Source: Mobula birostris (taxonomy: Eukaryota). From it: a DNA stretch of 64,000 nt. The position numbers were made by a program, and so were the translations under genes. Shown in pieces: positions 16,021 to 55,598 of this stretch; position 1 is the first letter of the stretch; the number at the start of each line of letters is the position of its first letter. The notes under the pieces are model-generated. The model saw only the letters and a list, made by a program, of their open reading frames with translations, ran no database searches and had not been told where the DNA came from. Location of the stretch: positions 92,200,295 through 92,264,294 of the forward strand of contig NC_092382.1 of assembly GCF_030028105.1 (NCBI RefSeq), written 5' to 3'.

Positions 16021-16087
16021 ATGTTGGAAACATTTTCCCGCATCAGGAATACATACTATCTGGTCATTTTGGCTATCGGTATTCCTG
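16021..16087 (+). CDS. GPR139-like GPCR gene 1, exon 1 (MLETFSRIRNTYYLVILAIGIP-, phase 1)
   Basis: ATG plus 22 codons plus G, then a GTAAGT donor at 16088. Joins exon 2 in frame (G+TG=Val) to give the TM1 motif GIPVN. Confidence 0.88.
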
Positions 16088-18555
16088 GTAAGTGACGTTG
16101 AGTGCTGTGCTATAATTTAGCACAAGTCATGAACGCTGAGCTCAGCACTATCATTGACGATAATGATCTGCGACTTGATGAAAGGAGAAACAGTTTTAAT
16201 GAAATTGCCTGCAGACGGCATGAAAAGGAAGAAAAAGAAACGAGTACAGGTTGTATGATTGTTGTTGGGTGAAATAACGTGCTGTGTGATATTAAACAAC
16301 AGGGCAGTTAAAAGATCAATGCAAGGTTTATAATCTCTAAAATATCAGATCTGCGCTTGTTCCCGTTGGCGGAAATCCGTATCAATGAGCACGTGATTCA
16401 CAATAAGAATTCTCAGTTAAATTGTTAAAACTCCCTTGTTGTAGCCCTCATTTATTGTGACGATAACTTTGGGGTATCCGCACTTTACTAGGCACTGAAA
16501 ATAGTATCGGGAATTCATCGATCTTGCAAAATTTATTGGTTGATTTGTCGCGGGTTAATCGCAGCTTTTAACGTTTGCTGAACGCACAGACCATTTAGCT
16601 ACAACTAACACGTTGCTATTGTCACATGATCGCAAATGAAAACAAAATGCTTGTCATGTGTGACTTCGCATTTATTGTTTGTTTGTTTTCTTGTTTGCTG
16701 ATGCGTTCGATGTCGTTAATATTGTCAATTTAGAAAGAGGAAGCAGGAATGTTAAAACACATTAGCATTCAACAAATTTAAGTTTTGTCAGAAAGGCACT
16801 TGCGTATTGCAAATGTGCACATAATCCCTTATATAATAACGTAATTGCTTCTTTCGGAAATTTGCTAATTGTTAAAGTACTTTTATACTCCCGTTTTCTC
16901 TCGCTAAATTCTGTTACCATGAGAGTTTGCCTTTCATTTATGACAGTTTTGTAAGTAAATAGTATCTGGCATGTTACGGATAGTTTTGAAATGTTTGTCG
17001 ATATCTGGACAGACCCGCATAATTACAGGTGATAGCATCCGCTTGAGGATTATACACGGGTTATTCTGTTGACAATGGCGATTGTGTTGATAAATACCAG
17101 AACTCGGTGTAGGTATCATTCTCACGGACAGATACACTTGAACAGCACTCAGAAAAATGTGCTGGTTCTGGTCATAGAAGCGCGGAGGAAAGCTAGATTT
17201 CTGACAACTTCTGGGATTTCCATAAACCTCATTGTCTCAGAATGAAAAAGAAAATGCTGGAAAATGTCAACAGGCCGGGAAGTATCGATGGAAAGGGAAA
17301 TGCATTTAATGTTCCGGCTACGTCTGATGAAGATTCTCAGACCTGAAGCAGCAGCTCTGTGTCCCGCTCTCCAATGCTGTCTGACTTATTGAGTGCATAT
17401 ACTGTTTTAATTTAAAACCAGATTTTCCGCCTTCGAAGATAGACATTTATTTCGCTATTTTGTTACTCTGCTATTGTTTAGTTAAAACACTGACGGCTTT
17501 CATTTCCACGAGGTGACACAATTGGTAAGTTTTTGTATTTTATCACTATGCCAAACCGTATTACTTCTCAATCAGAGGAAATACAGATTAATAAAGCATG
17601 TTTCAATAAGATATATTAAATTACGCGATGAAGATATATAACTAGGTATGCGGTGAAATTGTCCACCTTTCCTTTGTTTCTTTTTGCTGTTCTGGCATTG
17701 GGTCTCGAGTTTGATCGATATTGCACTCACCACGGCAAATGTCCGTCTCTGGATGTCAGCGAGTCTTAACGTCTGCACAGGACACGTTTAAACGGGAGTT
17801 AAAGACTGAGAGCTGACGATTTGGTTAACGTGAACATCGGTGTGTTTTTCCTGTGTGTAGAACAAGAGGCAAGTACTACAACACAAGATCGTCCCGATCT
17901 CACCGTCAGGCGACAGCAAGGATGTTGAAAGATAGTGTCTGTCTGCGCTACTCAGAGAAAATTGTGTAAATAACTTGCTGGAAAATGCATCTTGATATAA
18001 AATAACCTAGAATTAGAACTCCCCAAGTTGTAGAGATGCGAGCAGACACAAATTCATTTCTTCAATCTGATGTTGGGTTCTGGGCCCGAAACGGTGACTC
18101 TTTACTTGTTCCAGAGATGCCGCCTCAGCTGCCGTGTTCTTCCGGATTGTTGTGTGTGTCACTCCGGTATCTTTCGAAGGTCTTGTGGAATGGGACTGAC
18201 AGAGCAGATCGTGCTTTTCGCTTTACAACACTTTACAGAGGCTGTCAGGAATAGTCAGGGGTTACCCAATGACAGACAAAGCATGTTGGTTTGACCCACA
18301 ATGACTTTACCTGTTGCAGTGTGTGATAACTACCTTAACTCATTTTCATACAATTTTATCAACGCGTGAAAGACGTCACGTGACAGAGGGAGTTTATTTT
18401 CCTTCGCACACACGGTGCAGTTCATTCTCCCTTCACTACACGCACTTTATTGCGTTCTGCACTAACAGGACTCTCGATTTTATCCATAAAACTGGAGGCT
18501 CGAGCTAGCACAGAGAGAAAAAATACAATAGAAAACCAGCACCTTTCCTCTACTT

Positions 18556-19299
18556 AACTGATGGACTGATGTCATTGATGTCAGGGAACGTTATACTGAT
18601 GGACTGTTGTTATTGATCTGAGGGAAGGTTATACTGATGGACTGTTGTTATTGATCTGAGGGCAGGTTATACTGATGGACTGTTGTTATTGATGTCAGGG
18701 CAGGTTATACTGAAGGACTGTTGTTAATTGATTTGAGCGATGGTTATACTGATGGACTGTTGTTATTGATCTGAGGGAAGGTTATACTGATGGACTGTTG
18801 TTATTGATCTGAGGGCAGGTTATACTGATGGACTGTTGTTATTGATGTCAGGGCAGGTTATACTGAAGGACTGTTGTTAATTGATTTGAGCGATGGTTAT
18901 ACTGATGGACTGTTGTTATTGATCTGAGGGAAGGTTATACTGATGGACTGTAGTTATTGATCTGAGGGAAGGTTATACTGATGGACTGTTGTTATTGTTC
19001 TGAGGGAAGGTTATACTGATAGACTGTTGTTATTGTTCTGAGGGAAGGTTATACTGATGGACTGTAGTTATTGATCTGAGGGAAGGTTATACTGATGGAT
19101 TGTTGTTATTGATCTGAGGGAAGATTATACCGATGGACTGTTGTTATTGATCTGATGGAAGTTTATATTGATGGACTGTTGTTATTGAACTGAGGGAAGG
19201 TTATACTGATGGACTGTTATTAATGTTCTGAGGGAAGGTTATACTGATGGACTGTTGTTATTGATCTGAGGGAAGGTTATACTCATGGATTGTTGTTAT
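18556..19299. repeat. 38-bp minisatellite, left arm (GGACTGTTGTTATTGATCTGAGGGAAGGTTATACTGAT)
   Basis: About 19 tandem units, including a four-unit (~153-bp) higher-order block that is duplicated (18601-18906). Confidence 0.95.
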
Positions 19300-19985
19300 T
19301 AGATTAGATTATGAGAACACACAGTCCTCTTTTATTGTCAGTTAGAAATGCATACAAGCAGTAAGAAATGATACAATGTGTCTCCGGAGTGATATCACAG
19401 AAAACAGGACAGACCAAAGACTAATGCTGACAGAACCACATAATTATAACAAGTAGTTACAGCAGTGCAAAGCAATACCATAATTTGATGAACAAACCAT
19501 GGGCACGGTAAATAAATTCTCAGAAGTCCCAGAGTCGATCGACTCCCGAGTCCCCGATAGCAGGCGGCAAAAGGAACAAACTCCCTACTATAAACCTCCA
19601 GGCACCGTCAACTTGCCGATGCCTTGGAAGCAGCCGACCACAGCCGACACGGAGTCCATCAATCCGAAAACTTCGAGCTTCGGAAGAGCCTCTCTGATAC
19701 AGCTTCCCGAGCGCCATCCTCTGCCGAGCGCCATCAACCTTGCCCCGACCGCTGAAACGCGCAAATCAGAAGATTTCGGGGTCTTCTGCTCCGGAAAATC
19801 CGATTAACACACAGTAGCAGCGGCAGCGAAGCGGGCATTTCAGAAGTCTTCCGGGTGTTCCTCCGTACTCTCACGTCTGTCTACATCAAATCAGAATTGC
19901 GCACGGTCTCCTACTGGACAGATAACAGACATCACCACCGAAGTGGCCACGCGCGCTGCCGTCGCGCCGCCATCTTCTCCTCCTC
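19300..19985 (-). mobile_element. Non-autonomous retroelement inserted in the minisatellite
   Basis: Minus strand starts GAGGAGGAGAAGATGGCGGCG and ends AATAAAA...(TAATC)n. No recognisable ORF. Related to 21008-21635. Confidence 0.7.
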
Positions 19986-53873: not shown

Positions 53874-54135
53874 TACGAGGGATGATTGATATGCTCGTGG
53901 CCTAAGGTAGAAGGAGTCAATCTTAGAAAACCTAGCACATTTATTTTTCAACGTAGTCCTCTCCTGCATTTACACACTTAGTCCAGAGGTCGTGGAGCAT
54001 ACGGATCTTGGACCTCCAGAAACTGTCCACAGTAGAGGTGACTGATAAGTTCGTGGCCTAAGCTAGAAGGAGATGAGTTATACAGCTCTCACATGAGTGA
54101 TTCCACAGAAAGTTTGAAGTTAATAACCCATCTCA
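53874..54135. mobile_element. Mariner-type MITE fragment
   Basis: TA-CGAGGG..TGATTGATA TIR-like start, with an internal repeat of TCGTGGCCTAAG.TAGAAGGAG at about 54050. Confidence 0.55.
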
Positions 54136-55531
54136 TACAGTTTTGTCCAAGTCATATGTAAGAGGCACTGGTACAGAGAGTGGAGTTAAACCAATTCGGG
54201 GTTGGGTGGGGTGGGGGGGCGGTGTGGTGCACTGAAGAGACATATGAGAGTGTTCTTGCCAGCAGTATATTCGGATCAATAGATTGCATGAACATAATTC
54301 GTTTGAAATGTTGATCTGCGATGAAGCTCTCTACTCAATTCAATATATGGACATTGCATTAGCCAGAGCTGCAAATCTGTTTGTTAATAGGCCCTGGATG
54401 GGCGTGATATGTCAAATTACTTGTATAGGAAAGGTGTGGAATGATATTGAACCTGCTCAGCCGACTGTAAACGGCTCCAGAAGGCCCCTTGGACGATATG
54501 TGTTGAGCGGCCACTCATTCTGTGCTGAACCGCCGTTTGGTTCTACAGTCATTCGCAGCCGTGTGGCCTGAGGAAAACCCTGGCGTCTGGAATTGCAATG
54601 TATCTTATTCCCTGCATCTCTCTGGTCCTTTTAGAAACTCAGCGGCTGCATTTATCGAACTACAATCCTTAAGAATGGCTCCAGATTGCAAAGGATTGTG
54701 GCAGATACCCATCCAGGTATAAACGACTTTCCACAACTAGTTATCACCATCCAAACATCCGGCTCCTGATCCAGTGTGGATAACTTCACTGACTGCAACT
54801 CTGAACTGACTCCACAATCTAGAGACCCACTTTCAATGACTTTATATTCTCTGTATTATTTATTCATATTTTTATTTTTATTTGTTCCCTTTTGTCTTCT
54901 CTTGCACATTGGTTGTTTGTCAGTCTTTGTTTATATATAGTTAACATTAATTCTATTGTATTGCTTTGTTTTCGCCTGAAAGAACATGAATCTCAAGATA
55001 GTGTAAGGAGACATTTATGTCCTTTGATAACAAACTTATTTTGACTTTGACTTTTTAGTTCTTTGGTACCTACAGCAAAAACTCAAGATGTTTGTTGTCC
55101 TTTGTCCTCTTTAATTTCCAGAATACAGGAACACAAGTAAATAAGAACGGGGATGAGCCACGTCTCTCCTGCCAAGCTGGGCGGATTGGTTTACACAACA
55201 ACCGCAGGCGGGTCACTGACTCTGAAACAATATTCTCATGGCGGTAAGATCGCCGCTCTAAATATCCACTCTCTAATGTGTCATATTTTCCATTCTTAGG
55301 AGTTTCGCAATTAATTCTATAAAACAAGCAAATGAAAATCCCAGCAGGGAATTCGCTCGGCTGATGTTTATTTTTAACACGCATTTCGAAAATCACTATT
55401 TTTAATTGTTGAAGTTTCCACGTCCCCGCGGGAATCTCAACGGCGATAAAAACTTTGGCCCTGTAACGCCTCGAAGTTTCACTCGGACAGGGTTACCGGA
55501 GGTGTAGGGTGAACAACACTTCGCGCAGAAA

Positions 55532-55598
55532 ATGCTGTACATCTATCACAGTGTTGAGAAAATAGTCTATGTTATCATTGCCGTCATCGGTGTTCCTG
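55532..55598 (+). CDS. GPR139-like GPCR gene 4, exon 1 (MLYIYHSVEKIVYVIIAVIGVP-); exon 2 expected beyond the window
   Basis: Same 67-nt length, phase and CCTG|GTAAGT donor as the other three genes, and the upstream motif is shared. Confidence 0.8.

Follow-up and report, generated by a model that had tools for sequence, protein, structure and literature searches.

A very large GPR139-related receptor family in the ray Mobula birostris is a likely chemosensory repertoire

Results

Four receptor genes in the window

The window, a 64,000-nt stretch of Mobula birostris contig NC_092382.1 (positions 92,200,295 to 92,264,294, forward strand; assembly GCF_030028105.1), contains four two-exon class A GPCR genes, here called A to D. 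Their first exons are all 67 nt long, start with ATG, and end in phase 1 at a GT donor, and a scan of both strands (open ATG..P/GTRAG exon, 55-84 nt) returned only these four. The genes, their remnants, and the predicted promoter elements are listed below in order of position.

15908..15935, + strand: putative proximal promoter of gene A, with a weak O/E-like site at 15908-15917 (6/8 positions) and a TATA box at 15929-15935
16021..16087, + strand: gene A exon 1, 67 nt, phase 1, encoding the N-terminus and the first half of TM1
20566..20645, + strand: decayed family exon 2 piece (third intracellular loop) inside the gene A intron
22911..23815, + strand: gene A exon 2, from the TM1 Asn to the stop; intron 6,823 nt, spliced protein 323 aa
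30034..30060, + strand: putative proximal promoter of gene B, with an O/E-like site at 30034-30043 (7/8) and a TATA box
30147..30213, + strand: gene B exon 1, 67 nt, phase 1
32973..33081, + strand: decayed fragment inside the gene B intron, homologous to the gene A intron piece
33881..34785, + strand: gene B exon 2; intron 3,667 nt, spliced protein 323 aa
43742..44116, - strand: gene C exon 2 remnant, a pseudogene with a one-base frameshift in TM3 and no similarity past TM4
46633..46699, - strand: gene C exon 1, 67 nt, phase 1
46789..46798, - strand: O/E-like site upstream of gene C (7/8)
55403..55433, + strand: predicted gene D promoter, with a homeodomain-type site at 55403-55408 and an O/E site at 55424-55433 (8/8)
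55532..55598, + strand: gene D exon 1, 67 nt
75507-76414 in window-equivalent numbering, + strand: gene D exon 2, outside the window, 19.9 kb downstream; intact, protein 324 aa

A preliminary description of this DNA had reported four paralogs in both orientations: two intact, one a pseudogene, and one partial. Three of the genes do lie on the forward strand and one on the reverse, with A and B intact (92% identical to each other in exon 2) and C frameshifted, but gene D turned out to be complete, its second exon lying just past the window edge. The gene A protein is identical, letter for letter, to RefSeq P0001, a Mobula birostris protein named 'probable GPR139'. The exact first-exon length holds for the four window genes but not for the whole family, where 56 distinct first exons included 25 of 67 nt, 27 of 70 nt, and four that were longer. 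No N-terminal sequon is found in genes A and B, as had been described. Both also carry NTFIY in place of NPxxY and the proline-free TM6 sequence FIILWLA, yet the former is nothing special, given that human and ray GPR139 read NFFLY, and loss of the TM6 proline is common but not universal, 16 of 95 paralogues still having P at position 6.50. The short N-terminus is likewise real but is probably ancestral, because low-copy bony-vertebrate relatives have it too. Neither NTFIY nor the short N-terminus carries any weight as a sign of a sensory role.

Receptor class and relation to GPR139

The family belongs to the class A (rhodopsin-like) GPCRs. Pfam 7tm_1 was matched at E 1e-18 and 7e-21, alongside a weak Srw match, and N1.50, D2.50, D3.49, and W6.48 were present in 95/95 paralogues. 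The predicted structure (pLDDT 85, pTM 0.82) matched class A peptide receptors in a fold search, in which GPR139 was only at rank 17, though with the highest identity listed, 23%. No OR, TAAR, V1R, V2R, or T2R Pfam model was matched at E up to 0.1, and none of these families appeared among the solved-structure matches or the named homologues.

The RefSeq name suggests duplicated GPR139 orthologues sensing Trp and Phe. In favour of this, GPR139 ranked first by sequence among solved structures (E 3e-9), and a phase-1 intron directly before the TM1 Asn is common to GPR139, GPR142, the family, and two low-copy groups, X and Y, introduced below. However, the ray genome has one separate copy each of GPR139 (on contig C11) and GPR142. 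The true ray GPR139 matches human GPR139 at E 6e-161, whereas family members share 23–35% identity with GPR139 and GPR142, and a clade of the family with GPR139 was rejected (AU p 4e-32; a second AU rejection had p 0.008). The pocket disagrees as well. GPR139, an orphan class A receptor that L-Trp and L-Phe activate, is reported to need F3.33, H5.42, W6.48, and N7.39 for Trp/Phe (PMC5430874), and among the 95 paralogues these were found in 17, 16, 95, and 1, respectively, with F3.33, H5.42, and N7.39 together in none. The earlier view that these genes are not GPR139 orthologs was thus borne out and the orthologue reading, to which we give almost no credence, is ruled out, while the suggestion of amino-acid sensing finds no support in a pocket that retains only W6.48 of the four residues.

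The common intron position and a sister position in the tree place the family in the GPR139/142 superfamily. Three low-copy bony-vertebrate groups, X, Y, and Z, join it at 100/98, in a clade that takes in coelacanth, teleost, sturgeon, and amphibian proteins, and the ray genome itself has one X-type and one Y-type gene. Z is favoured as the exact sister of the family (96/81), with a Z+X+Y alternative not rejected (p 0.455), and one long invertebrate row fell between the family and GPR139/142 branches with weak support. This sister branch, low-copy in amphibians, sturgeon, reedfish, and coelacanth, is probably the 'GPR210' of Rinne et al. (2019), a trio of orphan-subtype gene sets that lie close to GPR139/142 and come from coelacanth, gar, and fishes (PMC6504862); the assignment is by clade membership, the Ensembl ids of that survey being unmatched to our tree sequences. 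Unlike the present analysis, the text of that survey includes no sharks or cartilaginous fishes and reports no expansion. The family resembles GPR139 and GPR142 further in a TM7 motif lacking proline, but differs in mostly lacking P6.50, in its longer ECL2 and ICL3, and in a TM3-ECL2 cysteine pair that GPR139 lacks in the alignment used.

Copy number, birth and death

A family TM3 motif had 1,792 exact matches in the ray genome and 2,828 with one mismatch, compared with 0 and 1 for control motifs. All 30 exact matches that were inspected proved to be family members, and the one-mismatch pattern picked up 55/60 independently anchored copies, which extrapolates to a total of ~ 3,100. We therefore put the family at about 3,000 gene copies, far above a handful and a much larger expansion than the local cluster. 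About half of the copies in motif-anchored samples were intact (15/30 and 25/60), as were 14/16 in three 200-kb blocks. Clusters lie on at least 14 large contigs, zinc-finger arrays are co-amplified with the family genes, the A-B pair occurs four times inside 2.2 Mb at 98–99.9% identity, and one family gene is present six times at 99.7–99.97%. Even so, 95 of 108 intact copies were distinct, and 46 of 116 differed by more than 20%. A homologue search yielded 2,166 clusters with E-values no higher than 1e-10, and the 90% protein cluster holding gene A also contains stingray proteins. A low-copy sister branch of GPR139/GPR142 has been amplified in cartilaginous fishes through tandem and segmental duplication, and the proposal of a lineage-expanded birth-and-death repertoire with variable pocket residues is strongly supported. 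No paper describing the expansion was found in the literature searched, where GPR139 combined with shark returned none on the family by title or abstract; most subscription journals were outside its scope.

Selection

Codon models indicated purifying selection overall (mean omega 0.42), with many sites nearly invariant. Of the six sites at which positive selection was detected, five lie in the predicted ligand pocket. For 95 genes the site test gave 2dL 72, the highest value from 25 null simulations being 5.8; for 46 genes under 80% identity it gave 2dL 83 with the same top sites. Such tests are open to inflation by gene conversion. Mean omega was 0.87 at 31 pocket positions, compared with 0.31 at both 150 other TM and 61 intracellular positions, the pocket positions being those we take from generic class A numbering in a list compiled after the first site result. 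Site variability correlated with that in two shark species (rho 0.80 and 0.66). The intracellular face is conserved, while pocket positions have diversified with omega above 1.

Promoters

Many proximal family promoters carry a predicted O/E (EBF) site close to a TATA box. An O/E match was present in 57% of 20 non-alignable promoter clusters, compared with 6% in shuffled sequence, 6% and 1% upstream, and 8% in 893 TATA-anchored control windows. The motif was spotted by eye before testing, and promoters were anchored on the ATG rather than on mapped start sites; nevertheless, when 2,304 spaced palindromes were scored, the best two were both O/E forms. Seven of the 20 clusters had no 7-of-8 O/E site, and neither did gene A or the single-copy Y gene, the sole control promoter recovered, which had no O/E site. 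Homeodomain and TATA sites were more weakly enriched (p 0.005-0.015 before correction for 14 motifs), and promoter GC was low, at 37%. A forkhead-like motif was found in 22% of promoter clusters versus 1% when shuffled, and a C/EBP-like motif was also enriched (0.32 vs 0.12). The E-box motif was not enriched in family promoters, nor were PU.1, octamer, RUNX, NF-kB, and IRF; for these five immune motifs the tests were weak, as they used short consensus sequences. No 26-bp array preceded the genes in the window or in the 11-gene C24 block. Two of 39 candidate first exons were discarded as false by eye, promoters shorter than 600 nt were excluded, and no first exon was found within about 9 kb for 11 of 36 family stretches or for GPR139, GPR142, and X.

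No sequencing run catalogued as RNA was listed as containing the gene. Four runs were also compared with gene B at a likeness of 80%. They yielded short contigs of relatives, low in depth, and the joints shown included none between exon 1 and exon 2, which is no evidence either way. Three of the runs were guessed to be RNA, one of these probably being DNA, and the fourth was of an unknown kind.

Discussion

Cartilaginous fishes are reported to combine large olfactory organs and a V2R-dominated nose with very small OR, TAAR, and V1R families (PMC10116579), and a 'relative paucity' of their GPCRs has been described (PMC8455134). The family studied here, which automatic naming had concealed as 'probable GPR139', makes this mismatch between a large nose and few receptors testable. 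Its genes suggest that a repertoire for chemical sensing has probably been overlooked in animals regarded as poor in such receptors.

We consider it moderately probable that the family serves olfactory-type sensory neurons. It is large and clustered with birth and death, its diversified pocket sits on a conserved intracellular face, and its proximal promoters have O/E sites (strongly) and homeodomain and TATA sites (more weakly), which together form the signature of mouse OR promoters (PMC3247239). In such a system, expression of the individual genes in a sparse set of sensory neurons would depend on EBF and homeodomain factors, and the pocket between TM3, ECL2, TM6, and TM7 would accept a water-borne ligand that differs from one paralogue to the next. 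In microvillous neurons, all paralogues would then couple to one common G protein, likely Go or Gq, and through it to PLC and TRPC2. Against the olfactory reading, catshark olfactory neurons are reported to be all microvillous, with V2R expression dominant among the four families examined (PMC10116579), whereas the O/E promoters documented in the sources used here are those of ORs. The 50 most specific genes for catshark 'brain and olfactory epithelium' included no GPCR (PMC11979771), although V2Rs are missing from that list too.

A non-nasal role in chemical sensing (skin, gill, taste buds, gut, ampullary or lateral-line cells, or somatosensory neurons like those of rodent MRGPRs) strikes us as unlikely. 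A diversifying pocket suits any external-ligand repertoire, the forkhead-like enrichment would fit, and COE/EBF genes are reported as markers of amphioxus epidermal sensory cells, of ascidian palps, and of olfactory placodes (PMC7776563), but O/E, homeodomain, and TATA sites occurring together at low GC are best documented for olfactory receptor promoters. The preliminary description had left the choice between a sensory and an immune repertoire open, and the promoter evidence favours the former. EBF factors are active in B cells, other neurons, and fat as well as in olfactory neurons, EBF1 being a B-cell factor, and positive selection with birth and death marks immune families too. Pattern-recognition receptors on leukocytes (B cells through EBF1, or granulocytes), diversifying against microbial peptides as formyl-peptide receptors do, would also accommodate the C/EBP-like motif. 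Against this, the immune-factor motifs were not enriched in the weak tests available, the O/E site occurs together with homeodomain and TATA words, and some 3,000 germline copies are far above any immune GPCR family known to us, making this account rather improbable.

The near-identical copies, the broken half of the family, and the co-amplified zinc-finger arrays could instead reflect mostly neutral amplification, with genes riding on segmental duplications or repeats and assembly redundancy inflating the count. Yet overall purifying selection with nearly invariant sites, omega above 1 mainly at pocket positions, the distinctness of most intact copies, and the stingray proteins and many homologue clusters all oppose it. 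Neutral amplification is very unlikely, and as the whole story it is largely refuted already.

Like vertebrate ORs, the family comprises more than a thousand clustered compact genes with many pseudogenes, a hypervariable pocket, and AT-rich promoters with O/E, homeodomain, and TATA sites. It differs in being a separate GPCR lineage (7tm_1, weak Srw, no olfactory Pfam model) with one coding intron, and the OR likeness serves as a working model. TAARs, lamprey TARLs, vomeronasal FPRs, and rodent MRGPRs are cases in which a non-sensory GPCR was co-opted into a sensory family. The route proposed here is the same, a receptor branch of low copy number having expanded in a single lineage, although the present family comes from another parent branch and its copy number is far larger. 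An olfactory role, if confirmed, would mean that a giant olfactory repertoire arose independently and would provide a second system in which to study receptor gene choice. The fullest version of this proposal, a fifth, unrecognised main olfactory receptor family in sharks and rays, with one to two thousand intact genes from the GPR210 branch under Ebf/Lhx2-type promoter logic as in mammalian ORs, replacing the missing OR repertoire and standing among the largest sets of chemoreceptors in any vertebrate, we judge to be evenly balanced.

The weak Srw match and Atlas neighbours also recall nematode Srw receptors and the protostome FMRFamide/MIP/proctolin/myosuppressin receptor supergroup, reported to be the sister of deuterostome GPR139/142, although identity is 25–28% and the expansion independent. 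Peptides ending in aromatic residues have been proposed as the ancestral ligands of that supergroup and GPR139/142 (PMC8557429). Judged by ancestry, candidate ligands of the present family would be peptides, derivatives of amino acids, or aromatic compounds. A low-copy amphibian relative retains a GPR139-like pocket, with F3.33, W6.48, and N7.39, and would allow the ancestral ligand to be approached through Xenopus or axolotl.

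Receptor genes in the window

The preliminary description had counted two intact genes, one pseudogene and one partial gene, all with a 67-nt first exon. For the window genes the first exon was found as described: an exon scan returned four starts, and nothing else in the window passed.

16021, start of 67-nt first exon, gene A
22865-23815, long ORF, second exon of gene A
30147, start of 67-nt first exon, gene B
33835-34785, long ORF, second exon of gene B
46699, minus strand, start of 67-nt first exon, gene C
55532, start of 67-nt first exon, gene D
18557-19300 and 19989-20333, 38-39-bp tandem arrays, gene A intron
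near 32230, one similar 38-39-bp-type unit, gene B intron
57593-62877, element with LTR-like direct repeats (93%) on both sides of a frame
58648-60312, minus strand, frame within that element

Genes A and B are intact, each splicing to a protein of 323 aa, and the gene A protein is P0001, a RefSeq entry labelled Mobula birostris. The pseudogene is gene C, with a one-base frameshift in TM3 and similarity lost beyond TM4. Gene D proved not to be partial, as a 19.9 kb intron leads to an intact exon 2 past the window edge (product of 324 aa). The predicted structure of gene A has seven helices, an ECL2 hairpin and TM1 from residue 2 (pLDDT 85), and a fold search with this model matched class A peptide receptors.

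The second exons of A and B (22911-23815 vs 33881-34785) have 42 differences. These concentrate in the segment TM4-ECL2-TM5 and in the tail, and long stretches without any difference separate the clusters. Together with promoters that are merely 76% alike, this pattern suggests gene conversion. The frame at 58648-60312 reads as an integrase-like segment followed by a reverse-transcriptase-like one, which, between LTR-like repeats, suggests a Gmr1-type gypsy retrotransposon.

Copy number and taxonomic range

A protein search of the ray genome gave 5,129 candidates, and the 131 that were scored were all full-length (131/131, 59-100% identity). A genome-wide copy count, proposed in the preliminary description, gave 1,792 exact matches to a TM3 motif (control 0), rising to 2,828 when one mismatch was allowed (control 1), while an ICL3 motif had 633 exact matches (control 0). 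All 30 exact TM3 matches inspected were family members; one-mismatch matches were checked in three blocks only, with 14 matches vs 16 family loci. The one-mismatch pattern recovers 55 of 60 ICL3-anchored loci, and we extrapolate from this recall to ~3,100 copies in total. Assembly redundancy may be present among the near-identical segmental copies (98-99.97%).

Exon 2 was scored as intact when it had an acceptor and no fewer than 270 codons, which held at 15/30 and 25/60 motif-anchored loci and at 14/16 loci in three 200-kb blocks. These samples were non-random, being first-listed matches and blocks set within known clusters, so the figure of about 1,300-2,000 intact genes is an estimate only. 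In a 200-kb block of contig C24, each of 11 genes has its own first exon.

The A-B pair occurs in four copies on G000:C17, at 91.88, 92.22, 93.17 and 94.04 Mb (L001-L008), with 98-99.9% identity and two per orientation. Among the receptor genes L134-L153 (G000:C24:60.4-60.6 Mb) lie 84-bp arrays, at block positions about 37900-39100 and 100200-101300, which look like C2H2 zinc-finger genes. At L232 and L233, the working exon 1 appears to be preceded at ~200 nt by a decayed copy of itself, donor site included.

In a protein cluster search, 2,166 of 4,211 candidate clusters reached E 1e-10 or better; among the best 120, the 119 that were named were all sharks or rays. A chimaera member was found (P0148, 48%), followed by more distant salamander, coelacanth and teleost proteins. 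Searching with the salamander protein gave 25 matches (20 amphibian clusters, 1 sturgeon, 4 elasmobranch), and the sturgeon protein gave 8, newly adding reedfish. These protein searches, which rely on shared words, returned no amniote relatives.

RefSeq carries family genes under automatic names, and no paper describing the expansion was found in the literature searched. The main text of the zebra shark genome paper contains none of the terms GPCR, GPR, G-protein or G protein (PMC10620051). Parts of the whale shark paper describe GPCR paucity (PMC8455134), and passages of the catshark atlas name known receptor families only (PMC11979771).

Separation from GPR139

True GPR139 is single-copy in the ray genome (contig C11), as is a GPR142-like gene (C28, 56% to GPR139), to which the name GPR142 is given by inference. 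Two further single genes, X (L080, C3) and Y (L083, C18), are elasmobranch representatives of two more orphan subtypes. They cluster with proteins from teleosts and coelacanth that RefSeq likewise labels 'probable GPR139'. In all of these genes and in the family, a phase-1 intron precedes the TM1 Asn.

A tree of 55 rows and 308 columns united the family with X, Y and Z, the last being an amphibian-sturgeon group, in one clade (support 100/98), with Z plus family at 96/81 and the family alone at 80/87. A family plus GPR139 clade was rejected (p 4e-32), as was one that also included GPR142 (p 0.008); a Z+X+Y grouping was compatible with the data (p 0.455). The earlier view that these are not GPR139 orthologs was thus upheld, and we hold with high confidence that the family is distinct from GPR139. 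Parts of Rinne et al. describe three gene sets near GPR139/142 in coelacanth, gar and fishes, called 'GPR210' (PMC6504862), to which the X/Y/Z branch probably corresponds. In the amphibian relative (P0223 and kin), Asn replaces the conserved D2.50 in 9/9 aligned proteins.

Selection on the binding pocket

An alignment of 95 distinct intact exons (out of 108) shows conservation on the intracellular side, at ICL1, DRF and ICL2, the ICL3 motif and helix 8; within the TM helices, variability is highest at 2.60, 3.29, 3.32, 3.33, 6.51, 7.35, 7.36 and 7.39. Our own grid codon model (F3x4, assuming no recombination) gave a mean omega of about 0.42. Allowing omega above 1 gained 72 in 2dL, vs 0-5.8 in 25 null simulations. 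Sites with posterior >0.95 were 84 (3.29), 87 (3.32), 88 (3.33), 249 (6.51) and, in ECL2, 149 and 161, the latter two residues past a conserved cysteine. All but one of these six fall within a 31-position pocket list, which uses generic class A numbering and was fixed after the first codon-model result. Omega was 0.87 in the pocket vs 0.31 at other TM sites (p 7e-8), in line with the variable pocket residues originally noted. The same sites led in a subset of 46 genes under 80% identity (from 116; 2dL 83), and site variability correlated with that of 40 Heterodontus (rho 0.80) and 26 Pristiophorus proteins (rho 0.66). We conclude with high confidence that the family is real and very large, and that purifying selection acts on it while its pocket diversifies.

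Ligand and signalling

Activation of GPR139 by Trp/Phe requires F109, H187, W241 and N271 (PMC5430874). These are kept in 17, 16, 95 and 1 of the 95 family copies, which lends no support to the amino-acid sensing proposed for the family. Nine aligned Z proteins have F in 9/9, W in 8/9 and N in 9/9. An aromatic or peptide ancestral ligand is plausible (PMC8557429), but the specificities of the paralogues must be different. GPR139 couples to Gq (PMC6367278), its structure was solved with Gi according to the title of the structure entry, and catshark olfactory neurons are described as all Go- and TRPC2-positive (PMC10116579). By analogy, the paralogues would share Go or Gq signalling.

Promoters and predicted role

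Mouse OR promoters are marked by O/E, homeodomain and TATA sites (PMC3247239), and Ebf with Lhx2 drives OR transcription (PMC5608512). O/E-like sites were first spotted by eye in the family, and more subfamilies were then added for a test of 48 promoters in 20 clusters not alignable with one another. In 57% of the 20 clusters, the region from -230 to -60 of the ATG matched the O/E palindrome at 7 of 8 positions, vs 6% in shuffles, 6% and 1% farther upstream, 7% in GC-matched controls and 8% in 893 TATA-anchored windows. With the printed consensus of PMC3247239, the rate was 43% vs 11%, 0% and 8.5% in controls. The two best of 2,304 spaced palindromes were O/E forms (log10 p -6.0 and -5.8), and O/E-palindrome matches peak between -150 and -50. 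Among 14 motifs tested in the 20 clusters, homeodomain, TATA, forkhead-like and C/EBP-like words were more weakly enriched, and five immune motifs showed no enrichment.

These promoter sites raise the sensory reading without proving it, since EBF also acts outside olfactory neurons. A chemosensory role of some kind is quite probable on the sequence evidence; an olfactory-type role, the best-supported mechanism, is predicted with the balance tilting modestly in its favor. A forkhead-like word ~130-165 nt upstream of the ATG is conserved in several subfamilies (L215, L219, L239, L241, L245, L248) and is in none of the four window promoters.
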